DNA from: Flavobacteriales bacterium
GTDB taxonomy: Bacteria; Bacteroidota; Bacteroidia; Flavobacteriales_D; Sanyastnellaceae
DNA length: 64,000 bases
Direction of reading: 5' to 3'
NCBI GenBank assembly: GCA_046336655.1
Contig: JBKDGH010000118.1
Span: 1,224 to 65,223, forward strand
Both the position numbers and the translations under genes were made by a program. Of this stretch, positions 2,263-35,910 are shown piece after piece (position 1 is the first letter of the stretch; each line of letters starts with the position of its first letter). The notes below the pieces were generated by a model. The model saw only the letters and a program-made list of their open reading frames with translations. It ran no database searches and was not told where the DNA came from.

Positions 2263-3494
2263 TCATTACCGCAAAGAAGCAGGAGACGTGCGTGCTGGTG
2301 GGATTGATTTCCCGTCAGCAACCCAAAGAACTCCTCATGGAGTATCTCGATGAGTTGGCGTTTCTGGCAGAAACAGCCCATGCAAAGTGCCTTCAACGAT
2401 TCTGGCAAACGGCGGATCATCCTGATTCCCGCACGTTTGTGGGGGCCGGAAAGGCAGATGAAATCAAGGAGTATGTGCATTCCAATGAGGTGGACATGGT
2501 CATCTTCGACGATGAGTTGTCGCCCTCACAGCAGCGTAATCTGGAAAATCTATTCAACACCGAAGAAAAGAAGGTCAAAATTCTCGATCGCAGCAATCTC
2601 ATTCTGGACATTTTTGCCGCCCGCGCGCGCACAGCACATGCGAAAACGCAGGTAGAGCTTGCGCAATACGAGTACCTGCTGCCAAGACTCACGCGCATGT
2701 GGACGCACCTCGAGCGTCAGAAGGGAGGAATCGGAATGCGAGGTCCCGGAGAGCAGGAAATTGAAACTGACCGAAGGATCATTCGGGACCGCATTGCACG
2801 ATTAAAGAAAGAACTAGAGCTCATTGACCGCCAAAAGGCGACCCAACGTGGAAATCGCGGGGCAATGGTTCGGGTTGCCCTGGTGGGTTATACCAACGCC
2901 GGAAAGAGCACCCTGATGAATCTGCTCAGCAAAAGCGAGGTCTTCGCAGAGAACAAGCTATTCGCCACACTGGATACCACAGTGCGGAAAATCGTGCTGA
3001 AACAGCTTCCTTTTCTGCTGAGTGACACGGTCGGCTTTATTCGGAAATTGCCCCACCAGCTCATTGAGTCATTCAAGGGCACCCTGGATGAGGTCCGCGA
3101 AGCGGATCTGCTCATTCATGTGGTGGACATAAGCCATCCGCAATTCGAGGACCACCTCCGTGTAGTGAATGAAACGCTGGCTGAAATCGGGGCAGGCGAC
3201 AAACCGGTGATTCTCGTATTCAATAAAATCGATGCGTACCGCCACGTGCCAAAGCCGGAAGATGATCTTTCTCCGGCTACAAAGGAGAACATCAGCCTTG
3301 CCGAATTGCAAAGCACCTGGATGGCTCGTAATACCGGAATGGACGTCGTCTTTATATCAGCGGTTACGCGCGAGCATGCTGACCAGTTACGGGATTTGCT
3401 GTATCAGCGTGTGCGTGAAATCCACATTCTGCGTTATCCTTATATCGATCCCGGGAAGGACTGGAATACCCCCGGGAACAGTGAAGAGGTTTAA
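2259..3494 (+). CDS. hflX: GTPase HflX
   Basis: 411 aa with an HflX N-terminal domain, a coiled linker (QYEYLLPRLTRMWTHLERQKGGIGMRGPGE), G1 GYTNAGKST and G3 DTVGF. The TTG start overlaps the cytochrome c stop. Confidence 0.9.
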   Translation: MIITAKKQETCVLVGLISRQQPKELLMEYLDELAFLAETAHAKCLQRFWQTADHPDSRTFVGAGKADEIKEYVHSNEVDMVIFDDELSPSQQRNLENLFNTEEKKVKILDRSNLILDIFAARARTAHAKTQVELAQYEYLLPRLTRMWTHLERQKGGIGMRGPGEQEIETDRRIIRDRIARLKKELELIDRQKATQRGNRGAMVRVALVGYTNAGKSTLMNLLSKSEVFAENKLFATLDTTVRKIVLKQLPFLLSDTVGFIRKLPHQLIESFKGTLDEVREADLLIHVVDISHPQFEDHLRVVNETLAEIGAGDKPVILVFNKIDAYRHVPKPEDDLSPATKENISLAELQSTWMARNTGMDVVFISAVTREHADQLRDLLYQRVREIHILRYPYIDPGKDWNTPGNSEEV

Positions 3495-26525: not shown

Positions 26526-27056
26526 TTAGTTTTTAAATGCACTCATCAGGATTTTATCCACGTACATTCCCTCACAGTACACATGCTCCTTAAGTCTGCC
26601 TTCTTCTGTGAAGCCGGCTTTTTCATAGGCGCGCATAGCTGCCGGATTATTGGAATAAACCGCCAAAAGAACTTTGCGCAGGTTAAGTGTCTGGAATGCG
26701 TAGCGAATCATCATTCCGCAAACCTCTGTACCTATTCCTTTTCCGCGATGATCCGCTGACCCAATAAGGATACCGAGTTCACAGGTACCCGAAATCCAAT
26801 CAATACGATCAAGCTTTACATTTCCGATGTGCTTGCTTGTGCTGCGGTCACAGACAGCCAGTATAACGCAGTCTTTATGGGTTGTCACTGAGGCGATATA
26901 AGCCTTGAGTGATTCCATGTTGGAAGGAAAATTGCCCGCAACAAGCCCTCTCGTGGTTTCCGGATTATTAATCCAGTCGAGGTATTCTGGGGTCGCATCT
27001 TCCATTGAGAGTGCTCTAAGGAAGACGCTGCTGCCATTCAGGAAAAAGCCACTCAT
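26526..27056 (-). CDS. GNAT family N-acetyltransferase (RimJ/RimL-like)
   Basis: 176 aa with the acetyl-CoA site HRGKGIGTE and YEKAGFTEEG. Confidence 0.8.
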   Translation of the reverse strand: MSGFFLNGSSVFLRALSMEDATPEYLDWINNPETTRGLVAGNFPSNMESLKAYIASVTTHKDCVILAVCDRSTSKHIGNVKLDRIDWISGTCELGILIGSADHRGKGIGTEVCGMMIRYAFQTLNLRKVLLAVYSNNPAAMRAYEKAGFTEEGRLKEHVYCEGMYVDKILMSAFKN

Positions 27057-27691
27057 TTATGCTTGATGTTGAGCAGATGGGAATACTTCTGCATGGTTTC
27101 TTTATCCTTCGTCAGGTTGTGGTCGTGCATCCTGTAACGATACAGCGGGATAGGCAAGTTGCAGATGTTGTATTTGCCGCTCCAGCGAATCCTCAGGTCT
27201 TCTTCTTCACGCGCTCTGAATTCTTCGTCGTACAGACCTATCTGATACAGGTAGTCTTTCCGGAACATGATGCCACATGCAATGGGCTCTTCCGCCGCAT
27301 TGGCATGGCGCACGTGCGTTCCTTTTTCATCAACAAGCCAGTAATCGGCCGATACGGCATCAATGGAGGTATTCTCTTCCAGAAATAGCTTTTGTACGTA
27401 GAGCAAATCCCGATGGATGTAGTCATCTGCATCGAGAAAAAGAATGAACTGTCCTTTGGCTTTCTTAATTCCAAAGTTTCTTGCTCCCGCAAGTCCGAGG
27501 TTGGATTCGAGGTGAAAGACCCGTGCATCATCTGCGTAGTTCTCCAGCACTTCTTTGGTGTGATCCGTGCTGGCATCGTCGATTACAAGTATTTCGTAGT
27601 TTCTCTTATCAAGACTTTGCTCCATGGCACTGCGGATAGCCCGCTCGAGATAATGCGCATAATTGTAAGTAGTGATGATCAATGAAACCAT
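27053..27691 (-). CDS. family 2 glycosyltransferase (short, 212 aa)
   Basis: VSLIITTYNYAHYLERAIRS, VIDDASTD and LDADD (the DxD motif). ATGA overlap with the GNAT gene. Confidence 0.85.
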   Translation of the reverse strand: MVSLIITTYNYAHYLERAIRSAMEQSLDKRNYEILVIDDASTDHTKEVLENYADDARVFHLESNLGLAGARNFGIKKAKGQFILFLDADDYIHRDLLYVQKLFLEENTSIDAVSADYWLVDEKGTHVRHANAAEEPIACGIMFRKDYLYQIGLYDEEFRAREEEDLRIRWSGKYNICNLPIPLYRYRMHDHNLTKDKETMQKYSHLLNIKHK

Positions 27692-27717: not shown

Positions 27718-30150
27718 TCAGGGTTTTTTCTTGTTCCGGCTTTTCCTGGTCTTTTTGTCGTCTTCGCCGTAGCCGTATCCATAGCTTCCGTAGCTTGAAT
27801 AACCGCCGTATCCATAGCCGTATCCATAACCGTAGCCGTATCCATAGCGGTATATGTACTTGCCGTAGTAGTACCTCCCGCGCTTGGTCTTAATGTTATT
27901 GAGGAGCAGACTGTTATTCTTCAGATTATTCTGTGAGAGTAAATCTTCAAGATGGCGAACACCCGCTTTTGTGGCCTTTTCGGTATTCATTACAATGATA
28001 CCGGTGCGCACCTTGGACAATAGCACCAGCGAGTCACTGATGAGCATCACCGGCGGAGTATCCACGATGACATAATCGTAGATCTTAGCGGTTTCGGTGA
28101 GCAGTGTATTTACCTTTTCATTCAGCACCAACTCCGAAGCATTGGGTGGCACCGGGCCCGCAGTCAGAACGTCCAGATTCTGAACCTGAGTGGGCAAAAT
28201 GGAATCCCGGTAATCCGTTCTTCCGATAAGGTAAGTTGATACTCCGGTGACGTTCTCAAATCCAAACACCTTGTGCACCCTTGGCTTGTGCAAGTCAAAG
28301 TCGAGGATAAGCACCCGTTTTGAAGCTTTCGCCAAAACCGCAGCGAGGTTAGCGGACACAAACGTTTTTCCTTCTCCCGGGTGAAGCGAGGTGACAAGCA
28401 GAACATTGGATTCGTCGGTTGGCAGCAGGTACTGCAGATTGGTGCGGAGTGCCCGGAAAGCTTCGCTGACATTACCCCGGGGACTTTCCATGAGGGCAAT
28501 CGGATGAATATCGCTGTCCGGGTAGTTGGGCACACCCCCGATCACAGGTATTTTGGTAATGCTCTTGAGTTCGCGGATGTTTTCGATGCGCTCCAGGAAG
28601 ACCATTCGCAATACCCCAATGATCAGGGAAATCAGGAGTCCAATACCTAGCCCGTAATAAATGATGCCTTTTTTGTTTGGGCCCACGACTCCAAGTGATC
28701 GTGCTGATTCGATTACGCTGGTCTGAGGTATGATGGCCGCTTTTGCAATGGCCGTATTGGCTTTCTTTTCCAGAAGGAAGGTGAAGAGCTGCTCATTGAC
28801 ATTCAGCTTGCGCTCAATGCTCAACAAGTCGCGTTCTGATTTGGGAATGGTGCTGAGCGTGCGCTCCAGATCACGGATCTGCCCGTTCAGGTCGCCGATC
28901 CGGAGCCTGACGGATTCCTTGGTATCCGCAGTGTATTTGTAGATACTTGACCGGATCGTATTGATTTCGCTTTCTATGCGTTGAATACGCACGTCGGCAT
29001 CTTTCAGGTCAACGGATAGATTGGCCTTGCGCTGACGAAGATCAAAAATGGCTGTAATCTGATCGCGAAGCGCCGTTTCATCCGCCCCGATGTAAGCCAT
29101 AGGAGGGATCACCGCATTGTCCTTTTCCTTGGTAAGGAAACTTTCCAGCGCATTGATCGATTCGATCTTAAGCTCCAGCTGCCTTTTTTGTCCTTCAGCT
29201 TCAGTCAGCGCGTCAAATGCTGCAGCTTGCTCGCGATTCAGATCCAGAATTTTCCGTGAATCCTTGAAGATCTCGAGACTCGTTTCAAGCGAGTCCATAA
29301 CACGCACCAACTCGTCCAGCTGAATATCAATGTACTTCTGGGTATTCTCGTTGATGGTGAATTGATTTTCGAGGGTGAAGTCGATGTAGACCTGGGCCAG
29401 TGTGTCCAAAAACTGAGTGGCTTTGGTCGCCAGTTCATCATTGCAGGTAATAGACAGAATGCTGGTGTATTCGACGTTTTTGACTGAGAGGTTCTCTGTG
29501 TATTTGTTGATCAGCCAGGACTCAGGATGCACGCGGATCATGAATGTCTGCTCCTGAATGATGTTGAGCCCGGGCTCATCCACCCACGGAGAAAGATTCA
29601 CCTGAATCACGAAATTACCGTCCTCGTAAGCTTTGCCGAATTCGAATTCGCGGTTGTACTGAATGCCTTCGAGGTCATAAGTCACAAGACACTTCTTCAG
29701 ATCGAGCACTTTGATGAAGATCGGATTATTGTGCAGCTTGCTGTTCATCCGCCGCCAGTCGCACTTCACGCTGATCGCGTCAAAGTGATCCACCTGACTC
29801 GTCTTGATCCGACCAACAAGGTAATAGCTGATAGAGAAGTCAATCTTGGAGAGCACACGTTTAATGAGGTCATACGATGTGATGACCCGTTGCTGGTTGG
29901 TAACGTCCTGAAACAACGAGAAGTAACCAATATCTTTGTATATCTTGTTTTGGTAGTCGTACGTTTCGTCGGACTTCAGAAGAATTTCCGTTCGCGCCGC
30001 GTAAATCTCCTGCAGCCGGTGGGTGTAGAAATAGGCAATCGTGAACGAAATCAGGCTGAACAGGATGATCAGATGCCAGTTCTTACCAATAAATTTCAGA
30101 ATGGGCCGCAGATCGTCTGCATCGATAAAATTCGTCCTCTGTTCGGCCAT
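27718..30150 (-). CDS. Wzc/GumC-like polysaccharide co-polymerase fused to a BY-type tyrosine kinase
   Basis: Wzz-like N-terminus with 2 TM flanking a long coiled periplasmic region, then Walker A GEGKTF, A' ILDFDLHKP, B VIVDTPP, and a Tyr-rich tail. The start is set at MAEQRT (30150) because a TATATTTG box lies at 30168-30175, inside the longer ORF. Confidence 0.85.
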   Translation of the reverse strand: MAEQRTNFIDADDLRPILKFIGKNWHLIILFSLISFTIAYFYTHRLQEIYAARTEILLKSDETYDYQNKIYKDIGYFSLFQDVTNQQRVITSYDLIKRVLSKIDFSISYYLVGRIKTSQVDHFDAISVKCDWRRMNSKLHNNPIFIKVLDLKKCLVTYDLEGIQYNREFEFGKAYEDGNFVIQVNLSPWVDEPGLNIIQEQTFMIRVHPESWLINKYTENLSVKNVEYTSILSITCNDELATKATQFLDTLAQVYIDFTLENQFTINENTQKYIDIQLDELVRVMDSLETSLEIFKDSRKILDLNREQAAAFDALTEAEGQKRQLELKIESINALESFLTKEKDNAVIPPMAYIGADETALRDQITAIFDLRQRKANLSVDLKDADVRIQRIESEINTIRSSIYKYTADTKESVRLRIGDLNGQIRDLERTLSTIPKSERDLLSIERKLNVNEQLFTFLLEKKANTAIAKAAIIPQTSVIESARSLGVVGPNKKGIIYYGLGIGLLISLIIGVLRMVFLERIENIRELKSITKIPVIGGVPNYPDSDIHPIALMESPRGNVSEAFRALRTNLQYLLPTDESNVLLVTSLHPGEGKTFVSANLAAVLAKASKRVLILDFDLHKPRVHKVFGFENVTGVSTYLIGRTDYRDSILPTQVQNLDVLTAGPVPPNASELVLNEKVNTLLTETAKIYDYVIVDTPPVMLISDSLVLLSKVRTGIIVMNTEKATKAGVRHLEDLLSQNNLKNNSLLLNNIKTKRGRYYYGKYIYRYGYGYGYGYGYGYGGYSSYGSYGYGYGEDDKKTRKSRNKKKP
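27766..27876 (-). repeat. Tyr/Gly codon repeat encoding the (YG)n kinase tail
   Basis: My translation gives ...RGRYYYGKYIYR(YG)7GYSSYGSYGYGYGEDDKKTRKSRNKKKP. The DNA is an imperfect GTA/ATA-NCC hexamer array. Confidence 0.85.
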
Positions 30151-30167
30151 TCGATGAGTATAGGGCG

Positions 30168-30175
30168 CAAATATA
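30168..30175 (-). promoter_or_regulatory. candidate -7 box (TATATTTG on the minus strand) for the kinase-led glycan operon
   Basis: The plus strand reads CAAATATA, which is TAnnTTTG on the minus strand, 17 nt upstream of ATG 30150. Confidence 0.35.
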
Positions 30176-30291
30176 GCGCAAGACCGCACTTGTGAAGGGG
30201 GGGCATGATTTCACAGACTGGCTGAACTCATTGGGCAGAGCGATTTTCGGATAGTTTTTCGGGGTGTTCATACAGTGAGCAGGATTCTGTT

Positions 30292-30299
30292 TACATTTG
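30292..30299 (+). promoter_or_regulatory. candidate -7 box (TACATTTG) for the XrtF operon
   Basis: Exact TAnnTTTG match, 22 nt upstream of ATG 30322. Confidence 0.35.
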
Positions 30300-30321
30300 T
30301 GAGCCGTTTAGATTAGTCCTA

Positions 30322-30537
30322 ATGAAACGCTTACTTCTCCTGCTGTTTTTTGTGGTGCTGGCCATTGCCGCACTTCCTCAGGCACCAGACCCTCCTGCGG
30401 GTGGCGGCCCTCCTTGCGGTCCGCCCTTTGGCGATCCATGCATTCCCATTGACGGAGGAGTGAGCCTGCTGATTGCTGCAGGTGTGGCATTGGGTGGAAA
30501 GAAGGCCTGGGATGCAACGAGGAGGAAGCAAATCTGA
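30322..30537 (+). CDS. 71-aa secreted mini-protein with a C-terminal P-I-D-G-G / TM / basic-tail motif (putative XrtF sorting signal)
   Basis: MKRLLLLLFFVVLAIAALPQA signal; PDPPAGGGPPCGPPFGDPC core; IPIDGG; VSLLIAAGVALGG TM; KKAWDATRRKQI tail. ATG start, own promoter box, and the stop lies 4 nt before the xrtF start. Confidence 0.6.
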   Translation: MKRLLLLLFFVVLAIAALPQAPDPPAGGGPPCGPPFGDPCIPIDGGVSLLIAAGVALGGKKAWDATRRKQI

Positions 30538-30540
30538 GCA

Positions 30541-31074
30541 GTGCTTAGAAATCCGTTTTACCGGTTCTTGATAGTTGGTACCACGCTGTTCCTTGCGTGG
30601 TATTTCGTTTATGAATGGTACCTGCGTGATCATTCGATGGCGGATGAATGGGTCATTCATCACCTGACTGTCTCGTCAGAGCTGATACTCAAGGGGATGG
30701 GTTACGAACTCACCGACTACGGATTTACCGGTTTACACAACAGGGTCGGCATTGCCAATGCTCCGGGAGTGATGATCGGAGCGGCGTGCGATGGGCTTGT
30801 TCTTTTTGCATTGTTCGCGGTATTTGTGATCGCCTATCCCGGCTCCTCGCGCCACCGCTGGTGGTTCATCCCAACCGGTATTCTGCTCATTCATTATCTG
30901 AATGCCCTTCGCGTGGTGGCACTCACAATCATCATCTCGTGGAAAAAGGAGTGGCTGAGTTTCAACCACGATTACACCTTTACTATTCTCGTCTATTCTA
31001 TTGTATTCGGTTTGTGGTGGATCTGGGTGAAGAAGTTTCCGGCTGAAAAAACCATCGTTCCCGAAACCAAATGA
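30541..31074 (+). CDS. xrtF: exosortase family protein XrtF
   Basis: 177-aa polytopic protein. Exosortase-type conserved residues sit in the expected order and context: Cys83 (GAACDGL), Arg124 (LNALRVV), His143 (FNHDY). Short Bacteroidota-type exosortase, followed by its signature partner gene. GTG start. Confidence 0.75.
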   Translation: MLRNPFYRFLIVGTTLFLAWYFVYEWYLRDHSMADEWVIHHLTVSSELILKGMGYELTDYGFTGLHNRVGIANAPGVMIGAACDGLVLFALFAVFVIAYPGSSRHRWWFIPTGILLIHYLNALRVVALTIIISWKKEWLSFNHDYTFTILVYSIVFGLWWIWVKKFPAEKTIVPETK

Positions 31075-31616
31075 AGCGCAGACTTGTCCTCATTACTTTG
31101 ATTATGAGCGGACTGGCTCTGGGGTTTATGCAGGAGAACTGGAAGGTGGGTGTCAACTTTGTCCTTGAACAGGCAGAGGCTGTTCCGGATTACTGGAACC
31201 TTTCGCCGGAGGCACGCCTGGCAGCGGTGGAGGCAAGGCGCATATTCTCCCCGTTGGATTATTATTACAGCCATGACACCCCTCGTTTTCTGTTCGTTAT
31301 GGAGCGCTCAGAACTCACCGCGCTGAAATGGGCCGTCACGGGAGGGATGATCCTCCTCTTTTTCATCATTAACTCCTCAGTGGCCTTCTTGATTACGAAT
31401 GACCGGCGAGCAATCAGGTGGATGGCTGCCGGATACCTGTTTGTTTTTGTCACCGCATTTTTGATTTACACCGCGGGTTATGCTGCCGGCAATCCGTCAG
31501 CAACTTATGGTATCAGCAGAAAACTGGCGGGAGCGCTGCAGTCGCTTATTCCGATTATGCTGTTTATGCCTGCCTGGTATTTGAATACGCAACGGAACCT
31601 TTCTTCATCCCGATGA
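31071..31616 (+). CDS. exosortase F system-associated membrane protein
   Basis: 181 aa, about 4 TM, ATGA overlap with the xrtF stop. The position and topology match the partner family always found next to XrtF. Confidence 0.65.
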   Translation: MKRRLVLITLIMSGLALGFMQENWKVGVNFVLEQAEAVPDYWNLSPEARLAAVEARRIFSPLDYYYSHDTPRFLFVMERSELTALKWAVTGGMILLFFIINSSVAFLITNDRRAIRWMAAGYLFVFVTAFLIYTAGYAAGNPSATYGISRKLAGALQSLIPIMLFMPAWYLNTQRNLSSSR

Positions 31617-32104
31617 AAACACCTGATCAGCTTGCGGATCACGCCCGGGTCTGGATTTACCAATCCGCTCAGCCCCTTACTCCCGGACAGGCAGAAAAGG
31701 CTTGTCAGATGCTCAATGAATTCATCGCCGATTGGACCAGTCACGGCGCCAGAATGGAAGCTGCTGCAGGGGTCTATCATGGCCATTTCATCGTGATCGC
31801 GGCGGATGAACAGAAAGCCCTGGCCAGCGGATGTGGCATTGACAAGAGTGTTCAGGCTATCCGGAATATTTCTGCGGATACCGGAATGGATTTTTTCGAC
31901 CGGTTGACCGTCCATTACATGAACGATGGTGAGGTCCGGACAGCACCGATGAATGCCTTTTGGGCGCTGCGCAAGTCAGAAGTCGTAACCGGCGAGACCC
32001 GGGTGTTCAATAATCTGGTGAGAACAGTCGGGGAATGGAAGAAGGGGTGGATTGTCCCGTTCGCTCAGAGCTGGCATCAGGAAGCCTGGGGCGGTCCGTT
32101 GTGA
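31613..32104 (+). CDS. conserved Bacteroidota ~160-aa soluble protein of unknown function (often mis-annotated ABC transporter ATPase)
   Basis: MKTPDQLADHARVWIYQSAQPLTPGQ...WTSHGARMEAAAGVYHGHFIVIAADE...SGCGIDKSV. ATGA overlap with the preceding gene. The track's 31418 start is a spurious extension across the upstream gene. Confidence 0.6.
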   Translation: MKTPDQLADHARVWIYQSAQPLTPGQAEKACQMLNEFIADWTSHGARMEAAAGVYHGHFIVIAADEQKALASGCGIDKSVQAIRNISADTGMDFFDRLTVHYMNDGEVRTAPMNAFWALRKSEVVTGETRVFNNLVRTVGEWKKGWIVPFAQSWHQEAWGGPL

Positions 32105-32355: not shown

Positions 32356-35300
32356 ATGATCAAAAGGTATACTGCACTTTCGATCTGTACCGCAGCAATC
32401 ACGCTGCTCGGTTCGTGTTGGTCTGCCCTTTCATACGGTCAGACGTTCACCAACCCCGCGCCCATAACCATTAATGCAGTGGGCAATGCCACACCTTATC
32501 CATCCACTATCACCGTATCAGGTGGGCCTAATTCCATCGTATCCGTGGCGGTCACGCTGACTGGTCTTTCTCATACCTGGCCAGATGACATTGACGTGGT
32601 GCTTGTTGCACCCAATGGTCAGGGTCTTTCCATCATGTCCGACTGCGGAAACGCCGCTGATGCCGCGAATGCAAACTATACCATTGCGGACTACGGCACT
32701 GCTCAGTTTGTGAACAATGCGCTGAACGCGAGTGGCACATACCGACCAACGGACTTCGCGCAGGGTATTGACAATATCCCGGGTGCCACTTACACCGCAT
32801 CTGCTCCAAGCGGCGCAGGCACTTTTGCCTCCGTATTTGGAGGTGATAATGCGAACGGAACATGGAGCCTTTACGTGGTAGATGATACGGGCGGAGATGC
32901 CGGTTCAATAAACGGAGGCTGGAGCATTGCCTTCGAAAACATTATTCCAGGTTGCACCAATCCCGGCGCTTTGAATTACAACCCGAATGCAACAGTCGAC
33001 AACGGCAGCTGCATTTTTTGCGGCCCCGGTCAGTCGGCGCTTGTGTTCAATATGTTCGATACGTTTGGTGACGGATGGAACGGTGCCTCATACTTCATTA
33101 CCAATGCGAGCAATCAGGTCGTAGGAACCGGAACACTTGCAACTGGCTCGTCCGGGACAAACACAATCTGTCTGAACCCAGGTTGCTACTCACTCACCGT
33201 CACAGGCGGCACATTTCCTGAAGAAATAGCCTGGAGCATCACGGATATCGGAGGAAATACGCTTCTTTCCGCAACGGCACCAAACGGACCCACCTCAGCT
33301 CCAATAGGCATTGCATGGGCAGGCGCCACAGGTTGTAACATTTCCGGGTGTACGCAGGAAGGTTGTTTCAACTACAATCCATTCGCAGATATCGATGATG
33401 GCTCTTGCGAATGTCCTGTTGCAAACGACGACTGCACGGGTGCTATTGACGTAGGTTGCGGTGTTTCAATCACAGGCTCAATGGCTCTCGCATCTGCAGA
33501 AGACACACCGGTTAACTGCTTCGGTATCGCGGTGACCTCTCCGGGGGTATGGTACCGCTTGATCGGAACAGGACAGCAAGTGATTGCAAGCACCTGTGCC
33601 TCTTCACCAAACGGAACATTTACTGATACCAAGCTGCATGTATATGCTGGTAATTGTGGAGCGTTGACCTGCGTAGGCGCAAACGATGATGATCCCAACT
33701 GTCAGTTCTTCAAGTCAACCGTGGTATTCAATACTATTCCCGGCGTCCAGTACTTCATCCTGGTTTCAGAGTTTGGTGCAGGTCAGGGCATTGACTTCGT
33801 TCTTACAATAGATTGCCTCGATTGCGATACGCCAATTCTGAATGATGACTGCGCCTCGGCGCTGCCGCAGCCTGATGGAGTGCCAACTCCGATGTCATTG
33901 TGCTGCGCAAACCAGGATCAGACTCTGAGCGCCTTCACTGGTGGTTATGGTGTATGGTTTACCATGAACAGCGGTGATGCGGATTCATTCGACTTCGTAC
34001 TCGCAAATGGTAACGGCCCTGGTGTGGATGCCAATGACGGAACCAACGTAGGGATGATCATTTATGAGGGACCATGTACTGCGCTCACTGCAATTGCCCA
34101 GTGTCCTGCTGTGGGTGATGTATGCGCAGGAAGCCTTTCTGCAGCAGGTATCCCGATCGACCAGAATACAGATTACTATTTCCTGGTTTACACCACTGAT
34201 CCTGCGAACTGCGGAGGTGCGTCACTGACTACCTCATTCGTATTCCTCGGATGCACTGACCCGTCAGCCGATAACTACGATCCTCAGGCTACTGAAGATG
34301 ATGGTTCATGTACCTACACGTCAGGTCCTGCGAATGACCTCTGCGCTGACGCCCAGGCACTGGTTTGCAATACCACCATCAACGGATCAACTGGTCTTTC
34401 AACAAACACCGGGGCACCTGCTCAGTGTGGAATTTCTGGTGCCGATAATGAGGGGGTGTGGTATTCAATCGCTGGGAACGGCCAGCTCCACACCATCAGT
34501 ACTTGCGGATCTGCTACAGACACTCGCATTGAAGTTGTTTCGACGTCCAACGGTTGCGCAGGCCCATTTACTTGCGTGATTGGGGAAGATGATGATGGAA
34601 CAGATGACGGCTGTGGATTCTTTGACGCAGATGATGCTTCAGTATCATTTATCTCAACTCCGGGTCTGACCTACTACGTGTATATCACTACAGGGCAGGT
34701 GGACACGAACAATGACGGAATTGCTGACCTGTTTGACGGTCCGTTTGTCCTCGATTACCAGTGCGCGGCTGTGAGCGAAGGTTGTACTGATCCTTGTGCA
34801 TGTAACTTCGATCCGAACGCCAACATCTCTATCGACAACTGCGAATATTTCTCATGCGCAAGTTGTGGTCCGGGTGAAACCACTACCATGCTCTTCATGG
34901 AAGATGACTTCGGTGATGGCTGGAACGGTGCTGACTATACCATCGAAGACCTCGCCGGCAACGTGGTAGCTTCTGGTTCCCTCGATGATGCAGACTGCAC
35001 GGTCGACGAAAACAACTTCGTAGGTCCGGATTTCGGATTTGATATCCTCTGCATCCCGGATGGTTGCTACACAATCACTGTAGGCGGTGGCGTATGGGAT
35101 GTTGAAATTGTTTGGCAGCTTATGGATGCCGATAACAACATTCTCGCAAATGGCGTGGCCGGTTCGGTTGATTTCACCATCGGTTCAGGTACCTGTGGAT
35201 GCACCGATCCGGATGCCTGTAACTTTGATCCCGATGCCGGAACTGACGACGGATCCTGTGAGTACGTTTCATGCGCTGGTTGCACCGATACTGCAGCCTG

Positions 35301-35910
35301 CAACTTTGATCCGGACGCCACCATCCCGGCGAACAACCTCTGCTGCTACGACAACTGCGTGACACTGCTCATGAACGATCAGTTCGGTGATGGCTGGAAC
35401 GGTGCTGTCGCAACGATCTCTTCTCTCACTACCGGTCAGGTAATTGGCACTGCGACCATTCCTGCGGGCACTGGACAGTTCAGTGGAACGGCTTCGTTCT
35501 GTCTGCCTGACGGTTGCTACGGCATCACCTTAACTGCCGGCGCCTGGCCTGCTGAAGTAAGCTGGACCATTCTCGGTGCAAACGGCATCGTTACCGGAGG
35601 TGCTCCTGTGCTCGAGGCAATTCAGTTTTCAGTGGGATCAGGCAACTGTACTCCTGGCTGCACTGAACCGTTCGCTTGTAACTACGATCCGAACGCCGGT
35701 CTCAGCGATTGCACACTGTGCGAATACACCAGCTGTCAGGGTTGTACTTACGAAGAGGCTGTCAACTACGATCCGGCTGCTTTGATCGACGATGGCTCAT
35801 GCATCATCGAAGCTTCGAACCCATGTCCTGCGGACATCAACGAAGACGGTGTAGTGGGTGTGGGTGACCTCATCATCTTCATCGCCGCATTCGGTCAGGT
35901 ATGTAACTAA
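32356..35910 (+). CDS. 1184-aa modular secreted protein: proprotein-convertase P-domain, Cys-knot NYDP motifs, GDGWNG modules, C-terminal dockerin-like Ca-loop
   Basis: Signal ...SALSYG|QT. P-domain (LTGLSHTWPDDIDVVLVAPNG...GTWSLYVVDDTGGDAGSINGWSIAF-type). 8 copies of C[TS].P.A.N[YF][DN]P.A..DDGSC. 3 copies of FGDGWNG...C.P.GCY..T..GG..P.E..W. Ends DINEDGVVGVGDLIIFIAAFGQVCN. Confidence 0.8.
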   Translation: MIKRYTALSICTAAITLLGSCWSALSYGQTFTNPAPITINAVGNATPYPSTITVSGGPNSIVSVAVTLTGLSHTWPDDIDVVLVAPNGQGLSIMSDCGNAADAANANYTIADYGTAQFVNNALNASGTYRPTDFAQGIDNIPGATYTASAPSGAGTFASVFGGDNANGTWSLYVVDDTGGDAGSINGGWSIAFENIIPGCTNPGALNYNPNATVDNGSCIFCGPGQSALVFNMFDTFGDGWNGASYFITNASNQVVGTGTLATGSSGTNTICLNPGCYSLTVTGGTFPEEIAWSITDIGGNTLLSATAPNGPTSAPIGIAWAGATGCNISGCTQEGCFNYNPFADIDDGSCECPVANDDCTGAIDVGCGVSITGSMALASAEDTPVNCFGIAVTSPGVWYRLIGTGQQVIASTCASSPNGTFTDTKLHVYAGNCGALTCVGANDDDPNCQFFKSTVVFNTIPGVQYFILVSEFGAGQGIDFVLTIDCLDCDTPILNDDCASALPQPDGVPTPMSLCCANQDQTLSAFTGGYGVWFTMNSGDADSFDFVLANGNGPGVDANDGTNVGMIIYEGPCTALTAIAQCPAVGDVCAGSLSAAGIPIDQNTDYYFLVYTTDPANCGGASLTTSFVFLGCTDPSADNYDPQATEDDGSCTYTSGPANDLCADAQALVCNTTINGSTGLSTNTGAPAQCGISGADNEGVWYSIAGNGQLHTISTCGSATDTRIEVVSTSNGCAGPFTCVIGEDDDGTDDGCGFFDADDASVSFISTPGLTYYVYITTGQVDTNNDGIADLFDGPFVLDYQCAAVSEGCTDPCACNFDPNANISIDNCEYFSCASCGPGETTTMLFMEDDFGDGWNGADYTIEDLAGNVVASGSLDDADCTVDENNFVGPDFGFDILCIPDGCYTITVGGGVWDVEIVWQLMDADNNILANGVAGSVDFTIGSGTCGCTDPDACNFDPDAGTDDGSCEYVSCAGCTDTAACNFDPDATIPANNLCCYDNCVTLLMNDQFGDGWNGAVATISSLTTGQVIGTATIPAGTGQFSGTASFCLPDGCYGITLTAGAWPAEVSWTILGANGIVTGGAPVLEAIQFSVGSGNCTPGCTEPFACNYDPNAGLSDCTLCEYTSCQGCTYEEAVNYDPAALIDDGSCIIEASNPCPADINEDGVVGVGDLIIFIAAFGQVCN

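Follow-up and report, generated by a model that had tools for sequence, protein, structure and literature searches.

Identification of a short open reading frame beside an exosortase gene

A very short open reading frame (ORF) immediately upstream of an exosortase gene raises the question of whether it encodes the target of that enzyme and, if so, to which sorting system the pair belongs. The window, meaning the whole 64,000-nucleotide stretch of DNA that was analyzed, contains such a 71-codon ORF on the forward strand (30322..30537). A preliminary description had taken its product as the substrate of an adjacent exosortase of the XrtF type, with a C-terminal signal that might be new.

The ORF starts with an ATG at 30322, stops with a TGA at 30535-30537, and encodes the 71-residue product MKRLLLLLFFVVLAIAALPQAPDPPAGGGPPCGPPFGDPCIPIDGGVSLLIAAGVALGGKKAWDATRRKQI. 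Reading the sequence again, we found the described segments in the same order: a signal peptide (about residues 1–17/21), a Pro/Gly/Cys core (residues 22–41; 30385-30444), the motif PIDGG (30445-30459), a 13-residue hydrophobic helix, VSLLIAAGVALGG (30460-30498), and a basic tail with five Lys or Arg residues, KKAWDATRRKQI (30499-30534), which ends the protein. The stretch from the motif proline to the C terminus comprises 30 residues. Sequence and hydropathy place a tripartite design, consisting of the motif, a hydrophobic segment of transmembrane length, and a basic cluster, at the extreme C terminus of this mini-protein, and a pattern search of all six reading frames of the window revealed no second tail of the PIDGG type.

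At the N terminus, MKR precedes a 15-residue hydrophobic run that is kept in the homologues, as judged by inspection and a crude hydropathy scan. This hydrophobic N terminus agrees with the signal peptide of the preliminary description, but the cleavage site assigned to it after Ala21 is probably wrong. Proline at +1 blocks cleavage by signal peptidase I, and cleavage after Ala21 is unlikely because proline would fall both at +1 and at −3. The homologues share the consensus A-x-A|QPGPP at the end of the signal peptide, and their alignment suggests that the mini-protein may instead be cleaved near AIA|A or AIAA|L, at residues 17–18.

The ORF also appears to have its own promoter. A Bacteroidota-type −7 box, TACATTTG (30292-30299, forward strand), which had been noted previously, begins 30 nt before the ATG, and the pattern TAnnTTTG is found upstream of homologous mini-ORFs in 37 of 55 nonredundant regions, mostly starting 24–31 nt before the ATG, compared with 2.4% of random 80-nt windows from the same loci. 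From this conservation, we infer that TACATTTG may function as a promoter.

The mini-protein belongs to the PID-CTERM family

To assign the product to a family, we compared it with NCBIfam release 20. The one family reported was NF046080, "PID-CTERM protein-sorting domain," which matched residues 42–61 with a score of 34.5 bits (cutoff 26; E = 1.2e-8); no other CTERM model, including those for PEP-CTERM and GlyGly-CTERM, matched at E ≤ 1. NCBI already gives several homologues the name "PID-CTERM protein-sorting domain-containing protein," and PF28310 (Pfam) is among their precomputed annotations. The possibility that a PID-type C-terminal signal is novel is therefore set aside, since curated models (NF046080 and PF28310) already exist and the name is in use at NCBI. 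By these model matches, the locus in the window is the curated PID-CTERM/XrtX system, which is already known. The consecutive accessions NF046080-NF046083 suggest joint curation of signal, enzyme, and associated protein as a single system. Our search of the literature on PID-CTERM, on XrtX or exosortase X, and on XrtY found no relevant paper or experiment; the PID-CTERM/XrtX system is known from database curation only.

The family consists almost wholly of small proteins of 53–130 residues, which fits a dedicated one-target system. A first homologue search returned 57 mini-protein homologues, all 60–119 residues long, and a profile built from 48 homologues, run against 1.84 billion representatives, gave 292 matches at E ≤ 1e-10. 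The best 150 of these 292 matches are 53–117 residues in length, save for one 1046-residue protein. That protein, P0194, was rejected as a long family member, being a repeat-protein false positive. Residues P42, D44, G46, L50, A52, A53, G54, G58, and K60 are invariant in the alignment of mini-proteins, and C32, C40, I43, and K61 are nearly so, with C40 missing in P0139, P0141, and P0291.

The adjacent enzyme is exosortase X

The gene that follows the mini-ORF (30541..31074, forward strand) has a GTG start and encodes a 177-residue protein. Among exosortase and archaeosortase models, the best match is NF046081, "exosortase X," at 174.8 bits, only ≈5 bits above its cutoff of 170. The model for XrtF, TIGR04128, ranks second with 77.6 bits (cutoff 90), the TIGR04178 signature matches at 51.4 bits (cutoff 23), and the ArtA model gives 18.9 bits. 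The identification of the enzyme as XrtF thus fails at the curated cutoff, and the score on NF046081 assigns it to exosortase X (XrtX). Three proposed catalytic residues, located by alignment, are Cys83 (30787-30789), Arg124 (30910-30912), and His143 (30967-30969). Consistent with the preliminary description of an intact Cys/Arg/His set, C83, R124, N142, and H143 are invariant across an alignment of 29 XrtX homologues. According to a crude scan of hydropathy and charge, XrtX has its N terminus inside, and three of its helices carry Cys83, Arg124, and His143 in their periplasmic halves. A profile search of the PDB found no relatives of XrtX.

Could the enzyme nonetheless be XrtF, such that the mini-protein reveals the missing XrtF sorting signal? 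The question is a natural one, given that JGI annotations label many homologues "exosortase family protein XrtF," a use of the name in older annotations that explains the earlier label. XrtF is also the second-best model for the window enzyme, XrtX and XrtF are both small Bacteroidota exosortases that are each followed by an associated membrane protein, and the substrates of XrtF are still unknown, with no cognate sorting signal identified (PMC10936215). In Flavobacterium johnsoniae, where XrtF (TIGR04128, Fjoh_1448) and the dedicated membrane protein after it (TIGR04127, Fjoh_1449) show this same arrangement, xrtF and its partner gene are both required for biofilm formation and surface colonization (PMC10936215). 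This result, the experimental evidence closest to XrtX and PID-CTERM, suggests a cell-surface role. The window enzyme, however, not only falls below the XrtF cutoff but scores 97 bits less on that model than on the XrtX model, all 15 enzyme homologues scanned, down to 34% identity, score best as XrtX, and TIGR04127, the model for the XrtF-associated protein, does not match the product of the next gene at E ≤ 1. We consider an XrtF assignment very improbable. Because the enzyme is XrtX, the window is silent on the XrtF substrate.

A mini-protein gene is conserved next to XrtX

To understand how regularly the two genes occur together, we used an alignment of XrtX homologues for a profile fetch of 80 metagenome loci, to which we added one locus from a Flavobacteriales MAG, and restricted the upstream survey to the 73 loci with at least 220 nt 5′ of the enzyme. 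In 70 of these 73 loci, a small ORF with a PID-type tail ends 3–93 nt before the enzyme match. Of 11 loci that were negative by the pattern screen, eight proved to have a tail that either was a variant (PIEDG or PIDGV) or had been hidden by a spurious match ahead of it, and the three loci that have no PID-type ORF upstream (L030, L037, and L040) come from one subclade. The reverse search gave the same picture: four distant homologues of the mini-protein (P0134, P0136, P0142, and P0135) all have an XrtX-like gene directly downstream, and in all four loci, a 138–165-residue membrane protein is directly downstream as well. The same layout of mini-protein, XrtX, and membrane protein recurs in L092, a locus reached through P0080, a homologue of the enzyme. 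In L089, the called gene at 2916..3440 on the reverse strand (174 aa) is spurious and the true XrtX ORF is 2802..3386 on the forward strand; the exosortase is missing from the context tables for this locus because the gene caller chose the opposite strand.

The expectation that relatives would carry a short ORF upstream of the exosortase is thus borne out, for XrtX loci, in 70 of 73 cases, and these loci, the four found through the mini-protein, and L092 together support a one-to-one pairing of the mini-protein with the exosortase encoded immediately downstream, as judged from gene neighborhoods.

The mini-ORF is a real, conserved gene. Over its full length, it differs from its counterpart in L002 by 23 synonymous and seven nonsynonymous changes (dN/dS 0.08), and over residues 22–71 by 16 synonymous changes and one nonsynonymous change (dN/dS 0.02). 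Ratios of 0.02–0.08 relative to close relatives are indicative of strong purifying selection. A skeptic might still see in it a chance ORF or a small peptide of another sort, such as a lipoprotein, a RiPP precursor, or a GlyGly-CTERM/rhombosortase target: the ORF is short, its composition is rich in Pro and Gly and looks like low complexity, the intergenic leader is GC-moderate, the opposite strand has long ORFs of its own (30308..30517 and 30331..30663), and the PIDGG motif contains a Gly-Gly. Against this, the substitution pattern in the forward frame is that of a selected protein, and conservation of the protein extends to loci in which XrtX shares just 37–45% identity with that of the window. 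A lipoprotein was discarded for want of a lipobox Cys at the end of the signal peptide, a RiPP precursor because there are no RiPP enzymes nearby, and a GlyGly-CTERM target on the model search described above. An Rfam scan of the window gave no match. Conservation and substitution pattern effectively refute the chance-ORF reading, and we regard this whole group of explanations as having a negligible chance of being correct.

The mini-protein gene probably heads a compact operon next to a glycan locus

The genes that follow the mini-ORF are closely packed. The preliminary description had placed the mini-ORF 4 nt from the GTG of the enzyme gene; the two are indeed adjacent, but the spacer is 3 nt (30538-30540), four being the difference between the coordinates. 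The XrtX gene in turn overlaps the next gene by ATGA at 31071-31074, and that gene overlaps the one after it, again by ATGA, at 31613-31616. The third gene (31071..31616, forward strand) encodes a 181-residue protein with four hydrophobic segments by hydropathy, probably the XrtX-associated membrane protein. It matches one model only, NF046082 ("XrtX-associated membrane protein"), and its 44.1 bits fall short of the cutoff of 75; synteny supports the assignment. The homologue in L001 reaches 54 bits on the same model and 16.6 bits on TIGR04127 (cutoff 35). Given the low NF046082 score and the narrow XrtX margin, the window lineage lies on the fringe of what the current seed alignments cover. 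The fourth gene (31613..32104, forward strand) encodes a conserved 163-residue soluble protein that has no NCBIfam or Pfam match. In view of the ATGA overlap and the downstream synteny, it may be a fourth member of the operon in this lineage, so far unrecognized. The mini-ORF is thus probably the first gene of a tight operon encoding the mini-protein, XrtX, the XrtX-associated membrane protein, and the 163-residue protein, a reading that we hold jointly with the PID-CTERM/XrtX explanation and weigh with it below.

Among loci with enough flanking sequence, 51 of 60 have a homologue of the associated membrane protein after XrtX, and 43 of 45 have a homologue of the 163-residue protein downstream. 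A protein with a P_proprotein domain, 1184 residues long in the window, is found downstream in 26 of 31 loci. In the window, this protein (32356..35910, forward strand) also contains eight copies of a C..P.A.N[YF][DN]P.A...DDGSC module.

Upstream, on the opposite strand, lies a gene for an 823-residue Wzc-type polysaccharide co-polymerase and tyrosine autokinase (27718..30189, reverse strand), recognized by its Wzz, GNVR, and AAA_31/ParA domains and by synteny. A gene of this type occupies the same position in 48 of 51 loci and is present in the distant L092 clade as well; loci L082-L089 have no Wzc neighbor and instead have SHMT, an SLT-domain protein, a T9SS cargo protein, and BamA. The C terminus of the Wzc-like protein (27718..27850, reverse strand) is formed by a YG repeat of unusual length, YRYGYGYGYGYGYGGYSSYGSYGYGYG, and a Lys-rich tail behind it, as in the homologue in L001; the repeat is presumably an extended cluster of autophosphorylation tyrosines. 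Behind the Wzc gene are genes for a GNAT acetyltransferase (26526..27056, reverse strand) and a family-2 glycosyltransferase (27053..27691, reverse strand), and 28 related loci likewise have a gene of the latter type at their edge. With these two genes, the glycan locus extends leftward from the XrtX operon. These neighborhoods lend some support to a link between the mini-protein system and the adjacent glycan locus, and the conserved divergent Wzc gene suggests that the product may act in or on a Wzc-dependent exopolysaccharide layer.

Sorting signal variants and an XrtX subclade with no adjacent target

The homologues fall into three forms. Class A, to which the window protein belongs, comprises proteins of ≈70 residues with a signal peptide, the sequence QPGPP..PPCGxPFGxxC(I)PIDGG, the helix VSLLIAAGLAYGG, and a KK..RKK tail. 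The other two forms are marine and carry a Cys-rich domain ahead of the signal, with a total length, for both classes together, of 106–130 residues. In class B (120–130 residues; L054-L068, L074, and L078, apart from the class C loci in that span), this domain is followed by C[IV]PIDGG-LGFLIAGGLGMGV-RRRKE, and in class C (≈114 residues; L066, L069, L071-L073, L077, and L080) by CLTIPIEDG-IPFLIIAGGVFAYY-RLREKK. Two class C mini-proteins (L069 and L077) have, immediately before the sorting signal, one copy, C.EDPDC.NYNP.AGC, of the module that is repeated in the 1184-residue protein, which hints that the XrtX target and its large neighbor might share a domain.

On NF046080, whose cutoff is 26, the class B protein of L059 scores 21 bits and a PIPLDGG variant in L081 scores 24 bits, whereas the class C mini-protein of L069 has no match to this model. 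The curated model thus looks too narrow for the marine PIEDG forms and the Cys-rich PIDGG forms. For enzymes next to the PIEDG and the Cys-rich PIDGG forms, the best model is XrtX, with scores of 176.9 and 165.1 bits, on either side of the cutoff of 170.

A P0021-like subclade of XrtX (L030, L037, L040, L090, and L091) has no PID-type ORF upstream. No PID-type gene was found in L090 and L091 within up to roughly 5–6 kb of flanking sequence, nor in the shorter sequences of L030, L037, and L040. The enzymes of this subclade score about 168–173 bits on the XrtX model. In place of a PID-type ORF, the subclade has a 1355–1372-residue CarboxypepD_reg protein upstream.

Comparison with known sorting systems

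The window locus matches the PID-CTERM/XrtX system (NF046080, NF046081, NF046082, and PF28310) in motif, helix, basic tail, C-terminal position, and small size, as well as in the gene order of mini-protein, XrtX, and membrane protein and in its Bacteroidota (Flavobacteriales-like) origin. Nothing essential differs, apart from the score of 44 for the associated protein against the NF046082 cutoff of 75.

Other systems are more distant. PEP-CTERM proteins and exosortase A (EpsH) share with the window a tripartite signal that opens with a Pro-containing motif and an enzyme with Cys, Arg, and His residues, and the tie of PEP-CTERM to exopolysaccharide loci (bioRxiv 10.1101/2023.06.07.544157) has its equivalent in the conserved Wzc neighbor. 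In that system, however, one enzyme serves many scattered and often large targets, whereas the window has one tiny adjacent target; its motif is PIDGG rather than PEP, it matches no PEP-CTERM model, and XrtX, at 177 residues, is much shorter than the 8-TM EpsH type. The PGF-CTERM system of Haloferax volcanii uses archaeosortase A, whose enzyme family is homologous and conserves the same triad, but the system is archaeal, has a different motif, and acts on a large S-layer glycoprotein, and the window enzyme is far from the ArtA model (18.9 bits). Signals of the MYXO-CTERM and JDVT-CTERM kind resemble the mini-protein in having a nearly invariant Cys just before the motif and helix (C40 in the window), and JDVT-CTERM also occurs as a dedicated system of adjacent genes (bioRxiv 10.1101/2023.06.07.544157). 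The enzymes that process these signals (myxosortases) are Rce1-like glutamic intramembrane proteases, not exosortases, and the Cys before PIDGG is not strictly invariant in the PID-CTERM family.

Proposed mechanism

Proteins with a C-terminal tripartite signal lose it to a cognate sorting enzyme; a set of Cys, Arg, and His residues is conserved in exosortases and archaeosortases alike, and dedicated systems encode enzyme and target as consecutive genes (bioRxiv 10.1101/2023.06.07.544157). Experimental support for removal of the tail coupled to lipid attachment is best for archaeosortase A, with ArtA needed for both steps (bioRxiv 10.1101/2023.06.07.544157), and we took this enzyme as the mechanistic template for XrtX.

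On this model, we infer that the precursor would be exported by Sec and its signal peptide removed. The C-terminal helix would hold it in the inner membrane with the basic tail in the cytoplasm, a topology with which the hydropathy and charge pattern of the mini-protein agrees in a crude scan. PIDGG would then sit at the periplasmic face of the membrane, level with Cys83, Arg124, and His143 of XrtX, which would cut at or near the motif via a thioacyl intermediate. A peptide of roughly 20–25 residues would be released or, more likely, passed to an acceptor. We put the probability at about 0.8 that the mini-protein is a PID-CTERM substrate of the adjacent XrtX, encoded first in a packed operon, with a product that is cleaved or transferred.

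Some features fit this model less well, among them the P0021-like subclade with no PID-type gene, the score of the third gene under the NF046082 cutoff, and the narrow margin of XrtX. The transmembrane helix, too, is unusually conserved for a segment to be discarded: L50, A52, A53, G54, and G58 are all invariant. The mini-protein might alternatively be a stable single-pass subunit or regulator, either of a complex of XrtX and its associated protein or of the Wzc machinery, with the PIDGG motif and helix serving as a docking element. Such a role would suit the tiny extracytoplasmic part of the protein, the strict one-to-one stoichiometry of the genes, and their packing, which resembles that of translationally coupled genes, and we found no published experiment on cleavage of the mini-protein. 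Its architecture, however, is the standard tripartite signal that is removed in sortase, exosortase, archaeosortase, and rhombosortase systems, XrtX retains the full set of Cys, Arg, and His residues, which would imply catalysis, and in the marine classes, the same tail is joined to Cys-rich domains of 70–90 residues, as if it were a transferable sorting module. We therefore consider a permanent subunit unlikely, though it is the most credible of the alternatives, and favor the XrtX substrate.

What the mature product might be is a further question. If the Pro/Gly peptide with its Cys-x7-Cys loop is the entire product, XrtX could join it covalently to a lipid or to a polysaccharide of the Wzc pathway, a speculative proposal that we think is rather doubtful. 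A peptide-capped or peptide-anchored glycan would result if it were true; we know of no description of this kind of molecule in Bacteroidota. Most of the ≈20-residue core (PPCGxPFGxxC) is conserved along with the PIDGG motif, and it may belong to the recognition element rather than to the cargo.

Implications

The preliminary interpretation was right in kind, namely a cognate target of the adjacent exosortase, and wrong in subfamily and novelty, so that it is partly supported. It argued soundly from the raw sequence and arrived independently at a one-enzyme, one-target system that is already curated. The annotation of the window is corrected accordingly: a hypothetical ORF beside "XrtF" becomes a PID-CTERM protein next to XrtX and a probable XrtX-associated protein. 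To the curated system, our analysis adds a quantified one-to-one synteny, a conserved Wzc neighbor, two more genes conserved downstream, forms of the signal that escape the current model, and an XrtX subclade with no adjacent target. A one-enzyme, one-target pair with a substrate of roughly 70 residues would be an unusually tractable model for learning what exosortases attach their targets to, a question that concerns the whole superfamily.
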